A stretch of DNA of 64,000 nt, taken from Candidatus Bathyarchaeota archaeon (lineage in GTDB: Archaea; Thermoproteota; Bathyarchaeia; TCS64). Within the stretch, counting starts at the first letter, position 1; the number at the start of each line of letters is the position of its first letter. The stretch covers positions 328,668 to 392,667 of the forward strand of contig CAVYVF010000023.1 of the NCBI GenBank assembly GCA_963771885.1, written 5' to 3'. The notes below the pieces were generated by a model, which worked only from the letters and a program-made list of their open reading frames with translations, searched no databases and was not told the origin of the DNA. The position numbers and the translations under genes were made by a program. This document shows, in pieces, positions 49,129 through 58,821 of this stretch.

Positions 49129-49848
49129 ATGACAGACGTCCTCGCACGCGTCAAGTGGGGCGCACCCGCGCTTAGCCTCCTCGCCGATGCTAAGCGGCTC
49201 GCGCCGGGGAAGCCGGCGATCATCCACATCCGCCACACAGAGCGCCCCGGGGTTACGGGGCCGAACAGCAACATGCTCCTCTCGACGCCGAACGGTAAAG
49301 CGGCCGCCATCGAGTTCGGCGAGAACTTGCCCGCGGAGAGGAGTTACCGTCTCTACTATACAGCCGTCAGCCGCTCAAAGGAGTCGGCGCAATCCATAAT
49401 CGAGGGGATCAGGAGCAGCAATGGGAAAGCGGAGATCGTTGGTGAGTTCCCATTCCGCACATCATTCGACCCGCAGGCCCTCGATGACTATATTGACCGC
49501 GTGATTAAGAAGTGCGGGGACGAGGACGCCGCCGTGGCGGAGATGATGAACAGGTGGCTCTCGGGCCTCGCGCCGCCGGACGTGTTCCGCCCCAGCGACG
49601 AGTTCGCCAGGCTTGTCGCAGACTACGCCATCGCTCGCCTCGACACCGCGACGCCGGACACAGTCGACGTATATGTGACCCACGACACGTGGGTTGGTTC
49701 ATGCCTCTTCCACTGGTTCGGGATACCGATGCCTCTGGACGGCGTCAGGTTCCTTGACGGCTACCTGCTGCAGCCCCTCGACAGGGAGATGGCTGTGTGG
49801 TTCAGGGGCAAGGCGATGAGGATTGAGTACCCCCACTGGTGGGCTTAG
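49129..49848 (+). CDS. histidine phosphatase superfamily (phosphoglycerate mutase-like) protein
   Basis: IIHIRHTER (RHG/RHxE catalytic motif) near the N-terminus. Confidence 0.55.
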   Translation: MTDVLARVKWGAPALSLLADAKRLAPGKPAIIHIRHTERPGVTGPNSNMLLSTPNGKAAAIEFGENLPAERSYRLYYTAVSRSKESAQSIIEGIRSSNGKAEIVGEFPFRTSFDPQALDDYIDRVIKKCGDEDAAVAEMMNRWLSGLAPPDVFRPSDEFARLVADYAIARLDTATPDTVDVYVTHDTWVGSCLFHWFGIPMPLDGVRFLDGYLLQPLDREMAVWFRGKAMRIEYPHWWA

Positions 49849-50552
49849 AGACCCTTCCTCAGCGCCTCGACGTCGGATGGCGGGTAGCCCGAGTAGAACT
49901 TGCTGAAGTAGCCGTAGGCGTCACGCCCCTCTCCGAGGTGTCTTTTCACCTTCCCCGCCCACTCGGCGGTCTCCGCCGCCTTGTCCACCTGCACCTCCCC
50001 CCTCTCGGCGACCACCGCCTTCCTATCTCCTTCCCAGCGGAAGTAGGCGAAGCCCGCCGTATCCACCTTGGGCGCCTCCGCCCTGTTTGTCGAGGCGAGG
50101 GCGACGCCGTGGTCGCGCAGCAGCTTGTACGTCTCCTCTGAGAACCAGCCCCGGTTCCTGAATTCGGCGGCGACCAGGCGCTTCCTCGGCAGGGCTTCGA
50201 GCAGGTCGTTGAGGGCTTTGTACTCGGGCTTGAGGAAGGGCGGGAACTGTAGGAGGAGTGGCCCCAGCTTGTTGCCCATCACCTCCATGTGGCGGAGGAA
50301 GACGTAGAGCCTCTCAGCGTCGTATCTGAGGCCGGGAACATGAGTCACGGTCTGGGGGAACTTGGCTGCGAACCTGAACTCCTCGGGTACCGAGTCTCTC
50401 CACGCCTCGATGGTGAAGACGCTTGGTATCCTGTAGAACGTGGCGTCTATCTCGACCGAGTTCATAGTCTTCGCGTACTCGGCGAGGTACCTCGTCGGCT
50501 TCGTGCCTTCGGGGTAGAGTTTGCCTACCCAGAACCTGTAGCTCCACCCCAT
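49845..50552 (-). CDS. DUF72 (YecE-like) family protein
   Basis: WSYRFWVGKLYPEG...YFSKFYSGYPP pattern typical of DUF72; sits directly downstream of the LigD ligase gene on the same strand. Confidence 0.55.
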   Translation of the reverse strand: MGWSYRFWVGKLYPEGTKPTRYLAEYAKTMNSVEIDATFYRIPSVFTIEAWRDSVPEEFRFAAKFPQTVTHVPGLRYDAERLYVFLRHMEVMGNKLGPLLLQFPPFLKPEYKALNDLLEALPRKRLVAAEFRNRGWFSEETYKLLRDHGVALASTNRAEAPKVDTAGFAYFRWEGDRKAVVAERGEVQVDKAAETAEWAGKVKRHLGEGRDAYGYFSKFYSGYPPSDVEALRKGL

Positions 50553-50566
50553 CGTGCCGAGGTAGG

Positions 50567-51958
50567 CTACTCCCGGCGCTTGAAGAGGAGCCAGTTCTTC
50601 TCACCAGCCTTAGTGAAGTGGACGAGCTCGTAGCCGCCCCTGAGACGCTCCCCGTGGATGACTATGGAGACCTTCTCCGGCGTCCACTCGACGGTCTCGT
50701 AGGTGCCCCTGTCCCAAATCTTGACGGTGCCCGCACCGTACTCACCCTTCGGGATCTCTCCCTCGAAGCCACCATAGTCTAGGGGGTGATCCTCCACAGC
50801 GACGGCGAGGCGCCTCTCCCCCGACTTCTCGGGCGGCCCCTTCGGCACCGCCCAGCTCTTCAGCGCACCGTCCCGCTCCAACCTGAAGTCCCAGTGCAGG
50901 TGGCTCGCGTGGTGCTCCTGGACGACATACATGTTTCCCTTCAGTTTCGTGCCTTCGCCGACGGGCTCGGGGCTCTTCGAGAAGTTCCTCTTAGAATTGT
51001 ACTCTTCGAGGGTCAAGGGCTTCACCTGCGATAGTGTGCAGTCGCGGGGGGTTTTATCGGTTCTCAGTCTGATGAACCGGGGGGCACGCAGGCGGTCGTC
51101 GTCGGTTAGGTTCTGGTAACCGACCTCGGCGACGACGCTTGGTTTGAGCCATGTGGAGTACGCGGGGATGTCTGGGGCGTCGACCTGTTTCTCCTGCGTC
51201 TCGTATGGGCGGAAGGCGGCGATCAACTCGCGGAGCTTCTTCTCAGTGAAACCCGTACCCACCCTGCCAACGAAGGTCAGCTTATCCCCTTCGTAGAGCC
51301 CGAGTAGCAGCGCCCCGAAGGAGTCCGCCCTGTTACCCGTCCCCCTCGTGTAACCAACGACGACGCAGTCCGCCGTCTTCACCCTCTTCACCTTTAGCCA
51401 TTCCTTGCTCCTCTCCCCCGGGCGGTAGAGGCTGCGTAGCTTCTTAGCGACGACGCCTTCTAGCCCTTTCGCGGCGGCCGCCTCGTAGTAGGCCTCCCCC
51501 TTCTCCTCGACGTAGCTTGAGACGACGACATGCTCCCCGTCCCGGAGCGATTCTCTGAGTATCTTCTTACGCTCGTTCAGTGGCTTCGAGGTTAGGGGTT
51601 TTCCGTCCTTTTCGAGTATGTCGAAGACGACGTATGTGCTCGGCGTCTCCCTTGCCTCCCTTTCTATGTCGCGGGGCTTGGACGCCTGCACCCGCTTAGC
51701 GACCGCTTGGAAATCAGGGCGCCCGCCCTTCATGACGATAATCTCGCCGTCGACGACGACGTTCGACGCCAGCTTGGTGAGCTCGGCGAGTTCGGGAAAC
51801 TTCATCGTGATGTCGTTGTCATTCCTACTAAGTATCTGTAGTTTCTCGCCGATGTGGGCTATGGCGCGTATGCCGTCCCACTTTACCTCGAAGAGCCATC
51901 CACCCCGGCTAAAGGGGGCGTCGGCGGGCTCCGCGAGCATCGGCTGGTACTTCATCAC
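50567..51958 (-). CDS. ligD: ATP-dependent DNA ligase LigD, ligase domain fused to C-terminal 3'-phosphoesterase (PE) domain
   Basis: N-terminal KWDGIR adenylation motif I, EGVVAKK motif V, OB domain; C-terminal VVQEHHASHLHWDFRLE...WAVPKGP...EDHPLDY...WDRGTY PE signature. Confidence 0.8.
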   Translation of the reverse strand: MMKYQPMLAEPADAPFSRGGWLFEVKWDGIRAIAHIGEKLQILSRNDNDITMKFPELAELTKLASNVVVDGEIIVMKGGRPDFQAVAKRVQASKPRDIEREARETPSTYVVFDILEKDGKPLTSKPLNERKKILRESLRDGEHVVVSSYVEEKGEAYYEAAAAKGLEGVVAKKLRSLYRPGERSKEWLKVKRVKTADCVVVGYTRGTGNRADSFGALLLGLYEGDKLTFVGRVGTGFTEKKLRELIAAFRPYETQEKQVDAPDIPAYSTWLKPSVVAEVGYQNLTDDDRLRAPRFIRLRTDKTPRDCTLSQVKPLTLEEYNSKRNFSKSPEPVGEGTKLKGNMYVVQEHHASHLHWDFRLERDGALKSWAVPKGPPEKSGERRLAVAVEDHPLDYGGFEGEIPKGEYGAGTVKIWDRGTYETVEWTPEKVSIVIHGERLRGGYELVHFTKAGEKNWLLFKRRE

Positions 51959-52749
51959 TTCTTCATCTGCGCCAGTGTCTGCTCTAAGGCTACCATCAGT
52001 TCCTTGACCTCCTCCTTCTTCTCGGGTTTTTCGACGTGGATAGTCTCGCCTTTGAGCTTCTTCTTGATCAGCTTCTCAACGTTCTCGCGGTAGGTGTCCT
52101 TGTACTCGGTTATGTCGAATTCGCCAGTAAGGTTATCAAGTATCTTGTAGGCGAGCTCCAGTTCCTTCTTGCTCGGCTGCTTCAGCTCCTTCAGGTCCTT
52201 GACCGTCATCGGCTCTATGACCTCGTTTGGGTAGCGTAGCGTCGTGAGTATGAGGGCGCCTTTGTAGCTGTGTATAAGGACGGGGTACTCCTTCGTACGC
52301 ATTGTGTAGCGCCCCACCCCCGCCATGCCTTTCTTCTCCAAAGCTGAGTAGAGGAGCCCGTAGGCGTCCACGCTCTTGTCGGGGCCGAGGATGTAACTGC
52401 TAAGGAAGTAGAGGGGATCGACGCCCAAGTACTGGACGAACTTGTCAATCTTAATGCGGCGGTCGGACTCGGGGCGTATGGCGTCGAGCTCCTCCTTCGT
52501 GAAGGTGACGAACTCCCCCTTCTCAACCTCGTAGCCGCGTGCCACGTCCGACCATTCCACGACCTCGTTGTCGTAGGTGCAGACCCTCTGGTACCTCAGC
52601 GGACACCCGTCCTTCTTACGTAGGAAGTGGAAGCTGTAGCTCTTGTCCCTGATCATCGTGTATAGCTTCACGGGCACGTTCACGAGCCCGATGCTTATCA
52701 TGCCACTCCAAAAGCTCCGTCCGGCTGGCGCCTGCTCCTCATCGCTCAA
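51955..52749 (-). CDS. ku: Ku protein (NHEJ DNA end-binding)
   Basis: RSFWSGMISIGLVNVPVKLY Ku core start. Probable TTG start around 52749 (or ATG at 52701); the long ORF to 52926 is likely non-coding run-on. 4-nt overlap with ligD. Confidence 0.75.
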   Translation of the reverse strand: MSDEEQAPAGRSFWSGMISIGLVNVPVKLYTMIRDKSYSFHFLRKKDGCPLRYQRVCTYDNEVVEWSDVARGYEVEKGEFVTFTKEELDAIRPESDRRIKIDKFVQYLGVDPLYFLSSYILGPDKSVDAYGLLYSALEKKGMAGVGRYTMRTKEYPVLIHSYKGALILTTLRYPNEVIEPMTVKDLKELKQPSKKELELAYKILDNLTGEFDITEYKDTYRENVEKLIKKKLKGETIHVEKPEKKEEVKELMVALEQTLAQMKK

Positions 52750-53254
52750 TGGTAACCCCGGTTTGAACCTCGGAAGCCATGAGTTTAACCTTTTCACACA
52801 ATGAAACTGAATAGGGTATTTGTCCGCCCCATCGCGAATGAGAAGATTACGAGCCCAGAGAGTATTATTGCGACTACATCCATCAGTGTCTGGTACCTCG
52901 CGTCTAACTTGCTGAACCACCGCCACCAGATGAACCAGGAGAAGACAAACGCTAGCAACACGAAGATCGAAATGTCGCTAACGTCGATGAATATTGTGTC
53001 ACTCACCGGGTGTCAAGCTGGTTCTTAGAACTCGCCGCTTTAACGGTTTTCTTTGCTTTGGGAAATTATTGGGTGTGTTATTTGGGATGGGTTATCAGCC
53101 GCCGTTCACTCGGACCTCTGAAGGCGTGGAAGCGTGAAGAAGCCGACGAAGGAGCAACTGAAGAAGGGATGCGTCATCTGCGTGAAGTTGATGACGGGTG
53201 ACTATCACGGCGCGGTCATTGACCTTAGCCACGATGCAGGCTTCTTTGACAAGC

Positions 53255-54124
53255 TCATGAGGATGCCTTGGATTCGCGGCTCTTCCACTTCTTAGAAGCC
53301 CAGAAGTCCTTCCAGTGGTCCTGCCTCTCCGGGACGTTCTTCAGAGTGAATCTTATGGGATCGAGGTCGTCTAGCTCCTCCCACGTGATGGGTGTTGAAA
53401 CAGTCGCCGATGGCGTTGCTCTAAGGCTGTAGGGGCACGCCATCGTCCGCCCCCTCCCGTTCTGCGGGTAGTCTATGTAGATCGTCCCCGGCTTCTTCTG
53501 CCCCTTTTCAGAGGAGACTATGCCCGTCTCCTTTGCGAGCTCCACTCCGACGCTGTGGGCGTATGCGCGGGTCGCCTCGTAGGTCTCGCTGCGGTCGAGG
53601 CGGGCGACGACGTGGAGCCCCCTCTTCCCCGAGGTCTTCACACACGCCTCGAAACCCCTATCCTTTAGCTTACCTCTGATGAGGCGTGCCACCTTGACCA
53701 TCTCTGGGATGCCCGCGGGGGGCTGAGGGTCGAGGTCGAAGAGCACCATGTCGGGGTGATCAGGTTTATCGATCCTCGCTAGGGGGATGTGAAGCTCAAG
53801 TGCTGCGAGGTTCGCGAGCCAGATGAGTGTGTCGAGGTCGTCGCAGATAATGTAGTCGAGCTCCCTCCCCGCCGCCTCGGAATAGGTATGATGGAGGCGG
53901 ACCCAGTCCGGCGTCCCCTGAGGCGCGTCCTTCCCGTAGAAGCCCTCCGTCTCGACTCCGTCGGGGTAACGCGTCACAACAAGCGCCCGCTCCTCGAGGA
54001 AGGGCAGCATCCTAGGCGCAACGATGATGTAGTACTTCACGATGTCGAGCTTTCTCACCTCCGCGGCGGGGTAGAGGACCTTGTCTAAGTTAGAGAACTG
54101 GACCTTGGTGAGCTTCTCCATCAA
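53255..54124 (-). CDS. LigD primase-polymerase (Pol) domain protein
   Basis: KVLYPAAEVRKLDIVKYY..., DLDP and SGKRGLHV archaeo-eukaryotic primase motifs typical of the NHEJ polymerase domain. Confidence 0.8.
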   Translation of the reverse strand: MMEKLTKVQFSNLDKVLYPAAEVRKLDIVKYYIIVAPRMLPFLEERALVVTRYPDGVETEGFYGKDAPQGTPDWVRLHHTYSEAAGRELDYIICDDLDTLIWLANLAALELHIPLARIDKPDHPDMVLFDLDPQPPAGIPEMVKVARLIRGKLKDRGFEACVKTSGKRGLHVVARLDRSETYEATRAYAHSVGVELAKETGIVSSEKGQKKPGTIYIDYPQNGRGRTMACPYSLRATPSATVSTPITWEELDDLDPIRFTLKNVPERQDHWKDFWASKKWKSRESKASS

Positions 54125-54155: not shown

Positions 54156-54578
54156 CTAGGCTAGGGTTATCTCCGGCTCGAGTGTGACCTTCGCCTTTAT
54201 TGACTGCCAGATTAGGCTGTACTTCTCCGCCAGCTCCAGGGCGCGCCTCACCTTCTCTTCGGTGCAGCCGCGTATAACGATCTTCGGCCTGAGGGTAACT
54301 GCGTCGAACGTAGATGTCCTGTCTAGGAACTCCTCGACGTGCCCCTCGGCCTCGCATGTGTAGCTTATGAGGTCAATCTTGAGCCTCTCGACACTCCAGA
54401 TGAACATTAAGGCGTAGCATGTGTTCAGGGCAGCAACGAAAGCGTCCTCGGGAGTAAGCACCCCTACCACTCCCTTGATGTCGGCGGGCGCCGAGAAGGG
54501 GAGAACGGGGCCGTTACTCAGCGATACCTCGCCGCTGTGACCCCCCGTCCACCTGGCTGTGGTCCTGTAGGTCACCAA
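54156..54578 (-). CDS. OsmC/Ohr family peroxiredoxin-like protein
   Basis: 140 aa; two conserved Cys (NTCYALMF and RGCTEE) in OsmC positions. Confidence 0.65.
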   Translation of the reverse strand: MVTYRTTARWTGGHSGEVSLSNGPVLPFSAPADIKGVVGVLTPEDAFVAALNTCYALMFIWSVERLKIDLISYTCEAEGHVEEFLDRTSTFDAVTLRPKIVIRGCTEEKVRRALELAEKYSLIWQSIKAKVTLEPEITLA

Positions 54579-54980
54579 CTACGCGGCCTCCTGAATCTCA
54601 CCAATCTTCAGGGCGAGCAACTCGGCTATTCGACGTGCCGCTTTCAATCCTTCGGAGTCGAGTGTCCTCCTCCCCTTCGGTAGCTCGGCCCCCCACTCAT
54701 TGAGGAGCGCCTCGACGTCAACGCCCGCGGCGGGCTCCTTGCTGTATTTTGTTATCGCCTTGTAAGCGCAGTGCTTCCCGCAACCGTCCACCGCGATCGT
54801 CGGGTGATCCTTGGCGAAGCTGTGCTCCTGCTCCTCCCCTGCGAAAAAGAGGGGCAGGCAAATGGTCACGGTCTGATCTGATCCCTCAAGTGCTAGGCGC
54901 GTCGCGACCCTGCTTAACGTCCCCAGACCGCAGCACTCTCCACTGCAGGAGACGACGCCTATCTTCGGCTTTATCTTCAT
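54579..54980 (-). CDS. DGC-domain protein (putative Zn/thiol redox)
   Basis: VVSCSGECCG...CLPLFFAGEEQE...IAVDGCGKHCA; the conserved DGC motif plus extra Cys. Confidence 0.55.
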   Translation of the reverse strand: MKIKPKIGVVSCSGECCGLGTLSRVATRLALEGSDQTVTICLPLFFAGEEQEHSFAKDHPTIAVDGCGKHCAYKAITKYSKEPAAGVDVEALLNEWGAELPKGRRTLDSEGLKAARRIAELLALKIGEIQEAA

Positions 54981-55381
54981 GGCTGTGCCTCCCAGAGCTC
55001 GTCGACCTTCACCGCTAACTTTTCGGCGAGTATCTTGGAGAGCTTCTCACCGTCCTCGTCGAGTGTGGTGACTGTGCGTGGGCGTAAGCCGCGGTTCTCC
55101 CTAAGCAGGTCCATGACTCGGAAGTGGGCAGCGATCCTGCCCCCACTATGCTCGACGTTGTTGCCGGAGCATTCGAGGGTGCATCCGTCTACGGCGATGC
55201 ATGTGCTCCCTGCTACCTTGCGTCTCGCCTCCTCGTCGCCCATGACGAGCAGCGAGAGGCAGAGCGTATCCGCCTTCCCCGGGCGCAGTTCATCGCAGAC
55301 ACGGAAAACGGCGTCTCGGCTTATCGAGCCGAAGGACTTCCCTATGCCGCTGCAGGGGATGACGAGTATCGGCTTCTTCAA
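54977..55381 (-). CDS. DGC-domain protein paralog
   Basis: VIPCSGIGKSFG...CLSLLVMGDEEA...IAVDGCTLECS; a tandem paralog of the previous gene. Confidence 0.55.
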   Translation of the reverse strand: MKKPILVIPCSGIGKSFGSISRDAVFRVCDELRPGKADTLCLSLLVMGDEEARRKVAGSTCIAVDGCTLECSGNNVEHSGGRIAAHFRVMDLLRENRGLRPRTVTTLDEDGEKLSKILAEKLAVKVDELWEAQP

Positions 55382-55382
55382 G

Positions 55383-55835
55383 TTACATCCCCTTTATCTT
55401 CCTAAGCTCCTCGACGACCTTGATCTTCATCGACTCAAAGTAATCTTCCGCGGAGATGAGGACGCTCAATCCGGAAGCTGGTTTGATGACCGCCACCCAG
55501 CCCCCACCGTAGGGGTCACGGTTGATGACCTCGGGCTTTGACTCGATGGTGGGGTTGACTTCAACTATCTCTCCGTCGGTTGGGCTCAGTATGTCCTGCA
55601 CCATCTTCACTGTCTCGTAGCTGCCGATGAAACCCCCGTTAGTGATCTTGGTTCCGACTGGCCGAGCCTCCGCGAAGACAAGGTCGCCAGCTCTCCTCTG
55701 CGCGAAGTCGGTTAATCCAACCCTGATGCTTTCATCGGCTTCGCGTTTCACCCAGACCTCATCCCGGGAGTATAGTAGGCCCTTCTTGGCCTTGAACACG
55801 AACTTGTCAGCAGTTGTCTCGTAGTATTCACTCAT
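55383..55835 (-). CDS. glycine-cleavage H-protein-like lipoyl-carrier protein
   Basis: Start at internal ATG (MSEYYETTADKFVFK...); lipoyl-lysine motif SYETVKMVQDILSPTDGEIVEVN and GcvH-like C-terminus DPYGGGWVAVIK. Confidence 0.65.
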   Translation of the reverse strand: MSEYYETTADKFVFKAKKGLLYSRDEVWVKREADESIRVGLTDFAQRRAGDLVFAEARPVGTKITNGGFIGSYETVKMVQDILSPTDGEIVEVNPTIESKPEVINRDPYGGGWVAVIKPASGLSVLISAEDYFESMKIKVVEELRKIKGM

Positions 55836-56887
55836 CACTTCTTCTCCTCCACCTTCCCAATTCCTTTCCGGTTGCGGGGGAAGTAGCCGCATGTGTGCAG
55901 CCCGAAGCGCACTAGGCTGAGCATCAGCGGGACCTCGAAGAGGGGTCCGATGACGGTTGCCAGTGCAGCGCCACTGCCGATGCCGTACAGCGTTGTTGCC
56001 ACGGCTATGGCGACTTCGAAGTGGCTGCTCGAGCCGATGATTGTACAGTCAATGGCCGTGGGGTAGTCCCAGCGCATATACCAGGCGAGGGCGTAGGTCC
56101 ATACTATCATAACGGCGTAGTGGATGAGGTTGGGTACGGCGATGAAGAGGACGAGCAGGGGATCGCTGAGTATTATATTGCCCTGGAGGCTGAAGAGGAC
56201 GATGAGAGTGACGAGGAGGGCGAGGAAACTGACCTTACCCGCCTTGGCGCGGAATACGTCGTCGAACCACTCCTTGCCCTTGGCTGGGATGAGTATCTTC
56301 CTCGTGAGTGCGCCAGCGGCTACGGGTACGAGTATGAAGAATACGACACTCATGACGATGAGGTCCCAAGGTACAGGGATGCCACTGACGCCTAGGTAGA
56401 ACGCCGCCATAGGTGCGTAGAGGAGTATCATGAGTACCGCGTTTACAGCCGTGTTAATGAGCCCCTGCGCCATATCTCCCTTGGCGAGGAGCATCCACCA
56501 CATCACCATCGCTGTGCACGGCGACAAGCCAAGCAGTATGACGCCGGCTATGTAGTCGGGGTGCCCCGCGAGGAAGACGTTGGCGAGCAGCGTCATCAGC
56601 GCCGGCGCGATGACCCAGTTTGCGAAGACCGTGAACATTATCGGCTTCGGGTTTTTCGCCGCTTTCTTCACATCCATGAAATCGATACCGAGGATCGTCG
56701 GGTACATCATGAAGAAGAGGCAGATTCCGATGGGGATCGATATCTGGGCAAACTTTAGCGAGTCGAGGTACTGCCCGAAGCCGGGGGCGAACTTGCCTAG
56801 GAGTAGTCCGATCGCTATGCATATTCCGATCCAGACTGTTAGGTACTTTTCTATTATGCCGAGTTTCTTCTCCGACACGGCGATCAC
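55835..56887 (-). CDS. arsB: arsenite efflux transporter ACR3
   Basis: ACR3 family 10-TM protein with conserved Cys in LGLSPCTAMV and typical N-terminus KYLTVWIGICIAIG. Confidence 0.8.
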   Translation of the reverse strand: MIAVSEKKLGIIEKYLTVWIGICIAIGLLLGKFAPGFGQYLDSLKFAQISIPIGICLFFMMYPTILGIDFMDVKKAAKNPKPIMFTVFANWVIAPALMTLLANVFLAGHPDYIAGVILLGLSPCTAMVMWWMLLAKGDMAQGLINTAVNAVLMILLYAPMAAFYLGVSGIPVPWDLIVMSVVFFILVPVAAGALTRKILIPAKGKEWFDDVFRAKAGKVSFLALLVTLIVLFSLQGNIILSDPLLVLFIAVPNLIHYAVMIVWTYALAWYMRWDYPTAIDCTIIGSSSHFEVAIAVATTLYGIGSGAALATVIGPLFEVPLMLSLVRFGLHTCGYFPRNRKGIGKVEEKK

Positions 56888-56979
56888 TTTTCATCAACGT
56901 TACTACACCCTAACATATTAAGTTATGTGGATATGTGGATGGATGTATGTTTAAACACCTCGCCTCCCAAGGGACGCCT

Positions 56980-57393
56980 ATGGTCAGCGTACTGTTCATA
57001 TGCGTCCACAACGCGGGCAGGAGCCAGATAGCGGAGGCGATCTTCAACAGCCTCGCAGACGGGCGCCACCTCGCCAAGAGCGCTGGCAGCAAACCAGCAG
57101 ACCAAGTTAACCCCGTCGCAGTCGAGGCTCTGAAGGAGATAGGTATAGACATCAGCGGCAGGAAGCCAAAGAAGCTGGACGCCGACCTCGCCCTCGGGGC
57201 GGACCTAGCTATCACAATGGGCTGCGGTGACGAGCCCTGTCCCGTAGTCACCGGCGAGTTAAGGGACTGGGACCTCGAGGACCCCCATGGGCAGCCCATC
57301 GAGAAAGTCAGGGAGATCAGGGACGAGATACGACGGAGGGTCGAAGCTCTCGTCGAGGAACTCGATAAATGGTCTATACCCTCCCCGGATTAA
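56980..57393 (+). CDS. arsC: arsenate reductase, LMW-PTP family (thioredoxin-coupled)
   Basis: VLFICVHNAGRSQIAEA CX5R P-loop; downstream Cys (GCGDEPCP). Start at internal ATG 56980. Confidence 0.75.
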   Translation: MVSVLFICVHNAGRSQIAEAIFNSLADGRHLAKSAGSKPADQVNPVAVEALKEIGIDISGRKPKKLDADLALGADLAITMGCGDEPCPVVTGELRDWDLEDPHGQPIEKVREIRDEIRRRVEALVEELDKWSIPSPD

Positions 57394-57489
57394 ATCCTCC
57401 TCAACCATCTCCCAATTAACACAGTATTACCAACGCATGCCCCAGTTATGGCAGCTTTTATATCGCGCCAAACCTTTCCATCAAACGTT

Positions 57490-58821
57490 ATGGTCAAGAA
57501 AGCGATAATCATGGGCGCCGCGGGCCGCGACTTCCACAACTTCAACACCCACTTCCGGGACAACCCCGCCTACGAAGTTGTCGCCTTCACGGCTGCCCAG
57601 ATAAGCGAACTCGACGCTACCGCAGGAATCGAGAAGAGGATCTATCCCCCGGAGCTCGCTGGGAAGAGGTACCCGAAGGGAATACCCATCTACCCAGAGT
57701 CCCAGCTCGAGAAGCTCGTCGAGGATCTCGACGCCGACGAGGTCTTCTTCAGCTACAGTGACGTGAGCCATCAGTTCCTCATGAACGAGGGAAGTAGAGC
57801 TCTCGCCTCGGGCGCTAGTTTCACCCTCCTCGGCCCTAAGGAAACCATGATCACTTCGCAGAAGCCGGTGATCAGCGTCTGCGCCAGCAGGACGGGGAGC
57901 GGCAAGAGCCCCACGAGCAGATGGCTCGTCGACCGACTCAAGGCGCAGGGCAAGAAGGTCGTCGTCATCCGCCACCCGATGCCCTACGGTGACCTTGTAA
58001 AGCAGCGTGTCCAGCGCTTCGCCACCCTAGCGGACCTCGACAAGCACGACTGCACGATCGAGGAGCGGGAGGACTACGAACCACACATTGAGAGAGGTGC
58101 TATCGTCTACGCGGGCGTAGACTACGAAGCAATCATCCGGGAGGCGGAGAAGGAGACTGATATCGTAGTCTGGGACGGCGGCAACAACGACTACCCCTTC
58201 TACTGGCCAAAGGTACATATCTGCATCGTTGATCCCCACAGGGCTGGCAACGAGTTGACCTACTACCCTGGCGAGGTTAACGTTCGCATGGCGAACGTCG
58301 TCGTGATAAGCAAAGTCAACACGGCGCCGCCGGGGAGCGTTGAGCTGGTTCGGAAAAACGTCCAATCAGTCAACCCTTGGGCGCAGGTTGTGGAGACCGA
58401 TATGGTCATCACCGCTGACGACGAGGCTCGGCTCCTCGGCAGGCGCGTGCTTGTCGTGGAGGATGGTCCCACCGTCACCCATGGGGGAATGGGCTACGGC
58501 GCAGCAACGATAAAAGCGCGTGAGTTGGAGGCGACCATCGTCGACCCACGCCCCTACGCTAAGGGTACCATCAAGAGCGTCTACGAGCAGTACCCCCACC
58601 TCAAGAACGTGCTCCCTGCAGTCGGCTACAGCCCCAACCAGGTGAGGGAACTCGAGAAAATTATCAACGATACGCCCTGTGATCTTGTCCTCCTTGGCAC
58701 ACCTACCGACCTCCGCAGGTACCTGAAGCTGAACAAGCCCGCTATACGGGTTCGCTACGAACTAAGGGAGCGTAAGAAGGGCGAACTTGAAAAAGCTGTA
58801 CTTGGCAGGATGGAGTCCTAG
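57490..58821 (+). CDS. COG2403-type P-loop protein, possibly cyclic 2,3-diphosphoglycerate synthetase-like
   Basis: About 445 aa; Walker A VCASRTGSGKS in mid-protein; size and architecture resemble the CpgS family. Start at internal ATG (MVKKAIIMGAAGRDFHNFN). Confidence 0.35.
   Translation: MVKKAIIMGAAGRDFHNFNTHFRDNPAYEVVAFTAAQISELDATAGIEKRIYPPELAGKRYPKGIPIYPESQLEKLVEDLDADEVFFSYSDVSHQFLMNEGSRALASGASFTLLGPKETMITSQKPVISVCASRTGSGKSPTSRWLVDRLKAQGKKVVVIRHPMPYGDLVKQRVQRFATLADLDKHDCTIEEREDYEPHIERGAIVYAGVDYEAIIREAEKETDIVVWDGGNNDYPFYWPKVHICIVDPHRAGNELTYYPGEVNVRMANVVVISKVNTAPPGSVELVRKNVQSVNPWAQVVETDMVITADDEARLLGRRVLVVEDGPTVTHGGMGYGAATIKARELEATIVDPRPYAKGTIKSVYEQYPHLKNVLPAVGYSPNQVRELEKIINDTPCDLVLLGTPTDLRRYLKLNKPAIRVRYELRERKKGELEKAVLGRMES

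Follow-up and report, generated by a model that had tools for sequence, protein, structure and literature searches.

A lipoyl-carrier and DGC-domain gene cassette associated with arsenic-resistance operons in archaea and bacteria

Why should an arsenite-efflux operon carry a lipoyl-bearing protein of the glycine cleavage type, two small DGC-domain proteins and a member of the OsmC family? This question is raised by a locus of Candidatus Bathyarchaeota archaeon (assembly GCA_963771885.1, contig CAVYVF010000023.1, positions 328,668 to 392,667 of the forward strand), a stretch of 64,000 nucleotides that is referred to here as the window. Genes for an ACR3-family arsenite permease, a paralog of the glycine cleavage H-protein (GcvH-like), two DGC-domain proteins (DGCa and DGCb) and an OsmC-like protein follow one another on the minus strand, and a gene for a putative arsenate reductase, ArsC, is transcribed divergently. 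An initial annotation, made from the window alone, had proposed that these genes form an undescribed thiol/lipoyl redox module for arsenic. The gene set GcvH-DGCa-DGCb, together with the OsmC-like gene where it is present, is called the cassette below. It is a conserved, arsenic-linked unit found across two domains of life.

Conservation of the cassette in arsenic-resistance operons

Related loci were collected in two surveys. The genome scan used the DGCa signature [VI][IL]PCSGIGK with one genome per species and confirmed 468 loci, of which the best 80 were read. At these loci, open reading frames (ORFs) came from mechanical calling; those matched by the window proteins in blastp were named accordingly, and the rest were clustered without prior labels. 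The metagenome scan was anchored on the OsmC-like subfamily (alignment A6) and gave at least 538 confirmed matches, 80 of which were read. ORF labels throughout come from blastp or tblastn with a handful of queries. Genome loci flanked on each side by 2.5 kb or more are termed complete (n = 54), and more distant DGC contexts were sampled at two genomic places.

By record title, the genome loci divide into 42 from Bathyarchaeia, 25 from Chloroflexota and 13 from other groups, which include Acidobacteriota, Actinomycetota, Armatimonadota, a Proteobacteria metagenome-assembled genome (MAG) and Nitrososphaeria. Cultured Bacillota are represented by Sinanaerobacter chloroacetimidivorans and Moorella naiadis. 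GcvH is encoded at 78 of the 80 loci, where it adjoins the DGC pair, DGCb at 76 and the OsmC-like protein at 61. ArsR is found at 64 loci, ACR3 at 59, ArsC (within 6 kb) at 28, or some 35-40% of cassettes, and an ArsM-like protein at 13, while a thioredoxin-like protein of the PF13192 family (Thioredoxin_3, Trx3) is present at 30. Among complete loci these associations take in GcvH at 54 of 54, ArsR at 51, ACR3 at 44 and any ars gene at 53. The sole complete locus without a near ars gene is that of Moorella, whose ArsR and ACR3 sit 7 kb downstream. Co-conservation of the cassette with ACR3, ArsR, ArsC and ArsM therefore extends over Bathyarchaeia, Chloroflexota, Acidobacteriota, Bacillota, Actinomycetota and others.

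The metagenome loci give the same picture from a different anchor. GcvH-DGCa-DGCb lies upstream of the OsmC-like gene at 46 of the 47 loci with at least 1.35 kb of upstream sequence, which marks this OsmC-like subfamily as specific to the cassette. An ars gene is present at all 26 loci with at least 3.5 kb upstream, and at 21 of them it is ACR3 that is found.

The genes are tightly packed (median GcvH-to-DGCa distance -4 nt in 66 loci), and contigs carrying DGCa homologs of 72-79% identity keep the order of the cassette in differing surroundings. For example, ACR3-GcvH-DGC-DGC-OsmC lies behind a P-type ATPase gene at one locus (L001). At two others (L004 and L005), ACR3 is divergent from ArsR-GcvH-DGC-DGC-OsmC, with ArsP, a thioredoxin-like gene and arsC close by, and at a fourth (L007) ArsR and arsC are followed by ACR3-GcvH-DGC-DGC. 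Because gene order recurs in 80 of 80 genome loci and in 46 of 47 independent metagenome loci, with differing flanks, chance adjacency is excluded. A neighbourhood survey had been set beforehand as a test able to refute the proposed module. Co-conservation of the DGC, GcvH-like and OsmC-like genes with ACR3 holds in that survey, and the arrangement in the window is not a one-off.

The regulators point to arsenite as the signal. A CxC motif (ELCVCE-like) is carried by 64 of 64 nearest ArsR proteins, as well as by the regulators of two further loci; it is the motif of ArsR/CadC repressors that sense by thiolates. The missing arsR gene is a local peculiarity of the window, given how regularly ArsR accompanies complete related loci. 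As judged from these sequences, the cassette appears to be an As(III)-controlled accessory of arsenic-resistance operons, and this conclusion is far more secure than the relay reading of its function that is weighed below.

One DGC gene has been seen in an arsenic context before. The Pseudodesulfovibrio mercurii ND132 operon arsR5-arsP-arsE(PF13192)-DGC ends with a DGC gene that is listed as having unknown function, and the operon is up-regulated in arsenic-treated cells (bioRxiv 10.1101/2022.10.17.512643). Here too a PF08859 protein is combined with a PF13192 thioredoxin-like protein under ArsR control, in an operon that arsenic induces. Members of this thioredoxin-like family come after OsmC in cassettes of Chloroflexota, and in one protein (P0252) such a domain is joined to DGC. 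The P. mercurii operon differs in having a single DGC gene, no GcvH-like or OsmC-like gene, and ArsP instead of ACR3.

In Chloroflexota, the PF13192 gene lies immediately 5' of ACR3 at the end of the cassette, in the order OsmC-Trx3-ACR3 (L042, L049, L060, L068 and L072-L074). The order recalls the pairing of ArsP with Trx3 in other anaerobes and suggests a partnership between the small thioredoxin-like protein and the permeases.

Other genes recur around the cassette. Genes for a membrane thiol transporter (DsbD_TM, CcdA-like) and for a protein with weak likeness to Redoxin/AhpC each occur nearby in 11 loci, for example, in Bathyarchaeia L035 (9730-10431), L053 (11303-12004) and L064. Two small proteins without a family, of 89 and 109 aa, are also recurrent near Bathyarchaeia cassettes. 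A tblastn search of PLSDB with DGCa gave no match, so no plasmid copies were found there.

The taxonomic labels of two loci deserve caution. Cassette proteins from L020, labelled Candidatus Desulfaltia, and L024, labelled Krumholzibacteriaceae, are 71-74% identical to those of Bathyarchaeia. L024 also has, next to archaeal-type S15 and Pcc1 genes, a DHH-family gene that clusters with the one adjoining the Bathyarchaeia-type cassettes of L004 and L005. Both contigs are probably of archaeal origin and were placed in bacterial MAGs by mis-binning.

Two architectures and the residues that they conserve

Cassettes come in two forms. Type I, as in the window, consists of GcvH-DGCa-DGCb-OsmC, often followed by Trx3-ACR3 in Chloroflexota. 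Type II lacks OsmC and combines GcvH with three or four DGC genes, a ferredoxin and a 123-aa protein with five invariant Cys that resembles the N-terminal domain of HdrA (HdrA-N-like). Homology of this small protein to the HdrA N-terminal domain is indicated by matches to 9sfi_A (7.5e-5), 7bkb_A (5e-4) and 5odc_A (3e-3). Genes for 2x[4Fe-4S] ferredoxins occur at 27 of the 80 genome loci and those for HdrA-N-like proteins at 15; the window has neither. Among complete loci, 41 have only OsmC, 12 have only the HdrA-N-like protein, one has both and none has neither (Fisher p = 3.8e-11). Because the two proteins are near-perfectly complementary in this way, the core of the cassette is taken to be GcvH plus at least two DGC proteins. 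OsmC would then be one of two interchangeable end modules.

The HdrA-N-like protein was also considered as a divergent DGC protein. This possibility is ruled out by an hhalign probability of 1.3%.

Some parts of the cassette are physically joined. DGC::GCV_H fusions are found at four loci, namely Sinanaerobacter (by Pfam) and Moorella and two Actinomycetota MAGs (by motifs). The fusion to Thioredoxin_3 in P0252 joins DGC to a second type of dithiol carrier, and several tandem DGC-DGC fusions exist.

Sulfur- or metal-related genes accompany the cassette in some loci. At the type II loci L088 (5558-8287), L089 (5542-8273) and L090, four DGC paralogs and then GcvH are preceded by a CxC ArsR, an HdrA-N-like protein and a ferredoxin. 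ACR3 is absent within 7 kb, and Sulf_transp, DsrE, class-V aminotransferase and S-adenosylmethionine (SAM) methyltransferase genes are close by. The S. chloroacetimidivorans locus (L067, 1186-15309) is a large metal/thiol island. It begins with a CDF transporter, split ArsP, Trx3, ArsR, dihydrolipoyl dehydrogenase (Lpd), an XdhC-like protein, HdrA-N-like, ferredoxin, DGC::GcvH and three DGC genes. It continues with LplA, a second ferredoxin, a membrane thioredoxin, DsbD_TM (CcdA-like), a sigma factor, DUF2703, two ArsR genes and ACR3. Five loci in all have XdhC-like genes.

The GcvH-like protein has the features expected of a lipoyl carrier. Its predicted lipoyl-Lys is K78 in the motif YETVKM, and K78 and E75 are conserved in all of 65 cassette homologs. 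The protein aligns to Mycobacterium tuberculosis GcvH (3ift, 1.8e-25), with K78 at the lipoyl position of solved GcvH structures. It passes the cut-off of the PRK01202 subfamily (121.2 versus 117) and falls under that of the TIGR00527 equivalog (102.9 versus 115.85). An N-terminal extension of about 20 aa (DKFVF in the window, DKFxF in general) is typical of the cassette clade and is present in fused forms as well. LplA is encoded at four of the 80 genome loci (2.7e-59), in indirect support of the predicted lipoylation, and Lpd at five; one or the other is labelled by tblastn in several further metagenome loci.

The DGC proteins are members of a small family, with 567 clusters at 50% identity among 1.84 billion representatives. 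The PF08859 domain is matched by the two window proteins with 58.2 and 54.9 bits against a gathering cut-off of 27; the E value is 9.8e-16 for DGCb and 1e-14 for DGCa. DGCa and DGCb are 33% identical and represent two subfamilies, PCSGIGK and SCSGE. In DGCa, C10, C67, C71, K15 and R22 are invariant and C41 is kept in 90% of homologs. In DGCb, C12, C41, C67, C71 and R24 are invariant and E15 is kept in 99%.

An AlphaFold2 (AF2) model of DGCa has a flavodoxin-like fold (pLDDT 93). Placed on the secondary structure of this model, the conserved Cys lie at predicted strand ends or helix starts, which are the usual cofactor-binding sites of flavodoxin-like folds. Zinc binding by DGC is a conjecture of Pfam. 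Given the ferredoxin and HdrA-N-like neighbours, an Fe-S centre seems at least as plausible.

The searches for a characterised relative of DGC were negative. Hmmsearch of the PDB with the DGC profile gave no match at E<=10, and Foldseek gave none at E<=1e-3. A Pfam scan of 37 DGC proteins at E<=10 returned DGC only, with no CCG, FlpD/MvhD or ArsD signal. Bacterial DGCb orthologs are longer, at about 240 aa, and end in an extra domain of about 100 aa that has no Pfam match and carries the motifs C-x-C-G-S-G-[IV]-P-V and V-K-x-Y-N. Examples are found in bacterial loci L040-L083, among them L066 (8477-9199), and in proteins P0256, P0257 and P0268.

In the OsmC-like protein, C54 at the peroxidatic position and E44, the Glu of the 'PE' motif, are conserved in all homologs, as are many other residues. 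A second invariant Cys, C75, lies 21 residues past C54. The nearest solved structure, Ta0195 (2onf), has KYCF where the OsmC-like protein has KYSL.

By its residues the protein is not a standard Cys-based peroxidase, since Ser occupies the resolving position. The initial annotation had named an OsmC/Ohr thiol peroxidase. The OsmC domain stands, with PF02566, C54 and E44 in place, while the assignment as a peroxidase was overstated because the canonical resolving Cys is missing.

A possible dithiol relay and its rivals

The best reading of the cassette, to which we give a probability of roughly 0.45, is an As(III)-regulated redox relay of dihydrolipoyl and cysteine groups, for which the direction of electron movement and the final substrate are inferred only. 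The swinging dihydrolipoyl arm of the H-protein would be the central dithiol/disulfide carrier. DGCa and DGCb would probably form a heterodimer, because fusions and tandem forms suggest pairing, with a four-Cys metal or Fe-S centre in each subunit. This pair would couple the arm to an electron source that depends on the lineage: ferredoxin with or without the HdrA-N-like protein, Lpd and NADH, or a thioredoxin-like protein. In type I loci, the reduced arm may service Cys54/Cys75 of the OsmC-like protein, in parallel with lipoylated proteins that reduce Ohr/OsmC. The OsmC-like protein could then remove a thiol-reactive product of arsenic stress, either a hydroperoxide or an arsenic-thiol adduct, and ACR3 would export As(III).

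The relay idea itself goes back to the initial annotation, in which such a system might feed arsenate reduction by ArsC or guard against arsenic-thiol stress. A lipoyl/dithiol relay is backed by the invariant lipoyl-Lys, the Cys sets, the fusions of DGC to GcvH and to Trx3, and the Lpd and LplA genes of some loci. There is also precedent for its last step. Protein-bound lipoyl groups are reductants of the Ohr/OsmC disulfide, as with bacterial Ohr, lipoylated E2 and Lpd, and Trichomonas OsmC is thought to depend on the H- and L-proteins (PMC5384416). Both these systems and the cassette pair an OsmC-fold Cys protein with a lipoylated carrier. The cassette also keeps the Cys at the peroxidatic position and the Glu of 'PE', and a minority of its loci have Lpd. 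The cassette differs in the Ser that stands for the resolving Cys, in the invariant Cys75 and in the His at the position of the Ohr Arg. Moreover, it always interposes two DGC proteins, it is under As(III)-type ArsR control, and Fe-S proteins replace OsmC in type II.

Several observations weigh against such a relay. Canonical enzymes have their resolving Cys some 60 residues past the peroxidatic one (PMC5384416). In the OsmC-like protein this position is Ser121 (Ser in 96% of homologs), and no Cys lies at that distance past C54. GGH (His in 91%) stands where Ohr has the GGR that supplies the catalytic Arg, although the OsmC subfamily places its Arg elsewhere. Scores against the curated Ohr, OsmC and SACOL1771 models are far under their cut-offs (37.4 versus 166.15, 19.2 versus 88.85 and 17.9 versus 85.8). 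Because type II loci lack OsmC yet keep the link to ars genes, a peroxidase is not the universal output of the cassette. DGC proteins are without a structural or sequence relative of known function in the PDB, Foldseek and Pfam searches, and tblastn with Lpd, ferredoxin and Trx3 detects no electron donor gene in the window. The genome-locus evidence comes from only the best 80 of 468 loci. Finally, As(III) binds dihydrolipoyl groups with high affinity, and an arsenite-induced dithiol relay might for this reason poison itself.

A closer involvement of the lipoyl group is conceivable. Protein-bound dihydrolipoate could itself be the arsenic-handling group, with the H-protein capturing As(III) or organo-As(III) in a dithiol chelate, or it could donate electrons to DGC proteins acting as a new class of Cys or Fe-S enzymes on arsenic species, with cycling by ferredoxin or Lpd loading and unloading the arm at ACR3. 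This proposal is put forward tentatively as a fair-sized minority possibility. If true, it would represent a new detoxification mechanism, the first function assigned to the DGC family and a new non-metabolic role for lipoate in anaerobes.

It is unlikely, on present indications, that lipoyl-GcvH serves as a dithiol chaperone or sink. Such a 'protein-bound BAL' (British anti-Lewisite) would hold As(III), or methyl- or aryl-As(III), in a cyclic dithioarsinite chelate. By thiol exchange, the metalloid would pass to the Cys3/4 sites of DGC and from there to ACR3 or ArsP, as ArsD serves ArsA. The redox partners would do no more than maintain the arm in its reduced form, or oxidise it so that As(III) is let go at the pump. 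Several features suit this role. In the window, as in many loci of Bathyarchaeia, ACR3 and GcvH are coupled in translation, OsmC-Trx3-ACR3 closes the operon in Chloroflexota, and in P. mercurii a single DGC gene comes after ArsP and Trx3. The core persists without OsmC, and DGCa has three invariant Cys plus the fourth in 90%. The As(III) sites of ArsR, ArsD and ArsA are S3 sites, and the high affinity of dihydrolipoate for As(III) counts in the same direction. However, the presence of ferredoxin, HdrA-N-like and Lpd genes and of two to four DGC paralogs favours catalytic electron transfer over stoichiometric binding, and some type II loci have no ACR3 within 7 kb.

An improbable alternative makes DGC the enzyme, a new type of reductase that uses Cys to act on arsenate or pentavalent organoarsenicals, with lipoyl-GcvH or a thioredoxin-like protein as the dithiol reductant. 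Cys10, in the glycine-rich loop past strand 1 (C-S-G-x-G-K ... R22), would be the catalytic residue and Cys67/Cys71 the resolving pair, an arrangement that recalls the C10/C82/C89 relay of pI258 ArsC. The Cys-Gly-rich loop and the Arg indeed show no variation, and the predicted structure gathers the Cys at the ends of strands. The fusions of DGC to the dithiol carriers GcvH and Trx3 resemble the coupling of ArsC to thioredoxin or glutaredoxin. Many cassettes also have no other reductase nearby, as follows from the ArsC count given above. Yet the window already has an adjacent arsC gene, and four clustered Cys better fit a metal or Fe-S site. To judge by the names of samples and isolates, which give an impression only, the sources are sediment, peat and groundwater and the habitats anoxic, where As(V) is generally scarce.

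Known thiol accessories of ars systems include the ArsD chaperone, the ArsT/ArsX thioredoxin system and the pI258 ArsC relay. All resemble the cassette in placing small Cys-rich proteins with an arsenite pump under ArsR and in relying on dithiol/disulfide exchange. The carrier of the cassette differs in being a lipoyl group on an H-protein, and its partner pump is ACR3 rather than ArsAB. We know of no ars system for which a lipoyl cofactor on an H-protein has been described. ArsD has a thioredoxin fold and is unrelated to DGC in sequence and fold.

Sulfur trafficking or thioarsenic chemistry is a decidedly improbable explanation. The H-protein would resemble LbpA and carry sulfane sulfur or electrons, the DGC proteins would be Hdr-like catalytic subunits, and As-S bonds would be formed or broken in sulfidic habitats. 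In sulfur oxidisers, GcvH-like lipoate-binding proteins (LbpA) reportedly work with a heterodisulfide-reductase-like complex (sHdr). The cassette shares with that system a dedicated GcvH paralog outside glycine cleavage, an LplA-type ligase in some loci and Fe-S partners that include an HdrA-derived domain. HdrA-N-terminal-like protein and ferredoxin are present, DsrE, Sulf_transp and class-V aminotransferase genes stand beside type II cassettes, and P. mercurii, when its DGC operon is induced, produces thioarsenicals that are unidentified. The paired or tandem Cys-rich domains recall the twin CCG domains of HdrB, although this likeness is a lead only. On the other side, the core of the cassette lacks HdrB and HdrC with their CCG domains, full-length HdrA, TusA and DsrE3, and it has DGC instead, in a context of arsenic rather than sulfur oxidation. 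Neither HdrB, HdrC, a CCG domain nor TusA was detected, in line with the Pfam scan of 37 DGC proteins. The sulfur genes are found in few loci, and the HdrA-N-like protein is unlinked to DGC by the hhalign comparison above.

That these are ordinary housekeeping genes (an H-protein, a zinc-binding protein and a stress protein) merely lying beside an ars operon can be dismissed: the H-protein passes the PRK01202 cut-off and public annotation reads GcvH and 'putative zinc-binding protein', yet the order with ars genes is conserved across two domains of life with differing flanks, gene fusions tie the parts together, the H-protein is under the TIGR00527 cut-off, no Lpd is found in the window by tblastn, and gcvT/gcvP clusters are absent from the genes that recur around the cassette at the 80 genome loci (neither gene was searched for in the window).

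H-protein paralogs with roles outside glycine cleavage are also found elsewhere. GcvH-L of Staphylococcus and Streptococcus has SirTM/macrodomain ADP-ribosylation partners and differs from the cassette protein in lacking DGC, OsmC and an ars context. It is reported to be a lipoyl carrier paralog for oxidative-stress defence, and it is like the cassette protein in being a second H-protein devoted to stress protection rather than to glycine cleavage (PMC12440151).

The searchable literature, which leaves subscription-only papers outside, yielded no description of a GcvH-DGC-OsmC cassette. Its sole mention of a component is the DGC gene in the ars operon of P. mercurii, and to this extent the module is undescribed, as initially suggested. 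Because the set is conserved in arsenic operons and no description of it was found, the cassette is probably an unrecognised branch of arsenic defence that uses sulphur chemistry.

A lipoyl carrier recruited into arsenic resistance would reverse the usual role of lipoate, whose enzymes are the classic targets of arsenite. For the DGC family, the genomic context supplies a function that can be tested, where none is assigned in Pfam, the PDB or the searchable literature. Public annotation currently labels the proteins 'glycine cleavage system H protein', 'putative zinc-binding' or 'uncharacterized metal-binding protein' and 'OsmC family protein'. Such labels would inflate counts of glycine cleavage systems and peroxidases in metabolic reconstructions of these lineages. 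The cultured hosts S. chloroacetimidivorans BAD-6 and M. naiadis AZ13.I make the question open to experiment.

The window locus and its neighbours

The ORF table of the window agrees with the five packed minus-strand genes and divergent arsC gene that were first described, once two over-extended starts are corrected (Table 1). The GcvH-like ORF of 169 aa that reaches 55892 is too long, and gene calls on near-identical contigs give the shorter form. The same is true of an arsC start at 56935 (152 aa), as judged from the gene call on a near-identical contig. ACR3 may begin at 56878 instead of 56887; on a near-identical contig its gene call comes to 347 aa. The ETVKM motif of the GcvH-like protein and the AVDGC motif of the DGC proteins are both confirmed.

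Table 1. Features of the window locus and adjoining genes (window coordinates)
Feature	Position	Strand	Remarks
DUF72 protein	49845-50552		Follows the ligase gene
ATP-dependent ligase fused to LigD 3'-phosphoesterase domain	50567-51958	minus	Part of split archaeal NHEJ set (50567-54124)
Ku	51955-52926	minus	Part of NHEJ set
LigD primase-polymerase	53255-54124	minus	Part of NHEJ set; about 31 nt past OsmC-like stop
OsmC-like	54156-54578	minus	140 aa; PF02566 7.2e-13
DGCb	54579-54980	minus	133 aa; DGC domain PF08859, 'SCSGE' subfamily
DGCa	54977-55381	minus	134 aa; DGC domain PF08859, 'PCSGIGK' subfamily
GcvH-like lipoyl-carrier (H-protein) paralog	55383-55838	minus	151 aa; PF01597 1.6e-32
ACR3-family arsenite efflux permease	55835-56887	minus	First gene of minus-strand unit; TIGR00832
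ACR3/arsC intergenic region	56888-56979		92 bp; presumed divergent promoter, read from sequence
LMW-PTP-type arsenate reductase ArsC	56980-57393	plus, divergent	137 aa; PF01451 (LMWPc) 1.7e-21
Protein downstream of arsC	57448-58821	plus	457 aa; no Pfam/NCBIfam family
LMW-PTP, low-molecular-weight protein tyrosine phosphatase; NHEJ, non-homologous end joining.

The junctions leave little or no space between genes. ACR3 and the GcvH-like gene overlap by 4 nt, such that the GTG start of the latter runs into the ACR3 stop codon. A gap of 1 nt separates the GcvH-like gene from DGCa, DGCa and DGCb overlap by 4 nt, and the OsmC-like gene follows DGCb with a gap of 0 nt. A TTTAAA box and a short inverted repeat (ACATA-N6-TATGT) are seen in the region between ACR3 and arsC.

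ACR3 passes the TIGR00832 acr3 equivalog cut-off (342.1 bits versus 282.8) and matches PF01758 (2.7e-39). ArsC has the P-loop CVHNAGRS, a CX5R loop, and its best NCBIfam matches are arsenate reductase models, all of them under their equivalog cut-offs (82 versus 157.6 and 72.8 versus 174.3). A divergent arsC gene adjoins ACR3 in loci L006-L017 as well.

The window had been said to lack arsR and the glycine cleavage T and L partners. For arsR and Lpd this is borne out by tblastn over the whole 64 kb, which also found no homolog of LplA, ferredoxin or PF13192 Trx3; the statement about the T-protein stands outside these searches, which did not include gcvT or gcvP.

Directly downstream of the cassette, on the same strand, lies the split archaeal NHEJ set of Table 1. 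Its adjacency to the cassette is not kept in related loci. Downstream of arsC, the 457-aa protein has only a weak match to the LpxK P-loop and, over residues 230-318, a faint match to cyclic 2,3-diphosphoglycerate synthetase (PDB 9sxb, E 1.9e-4).

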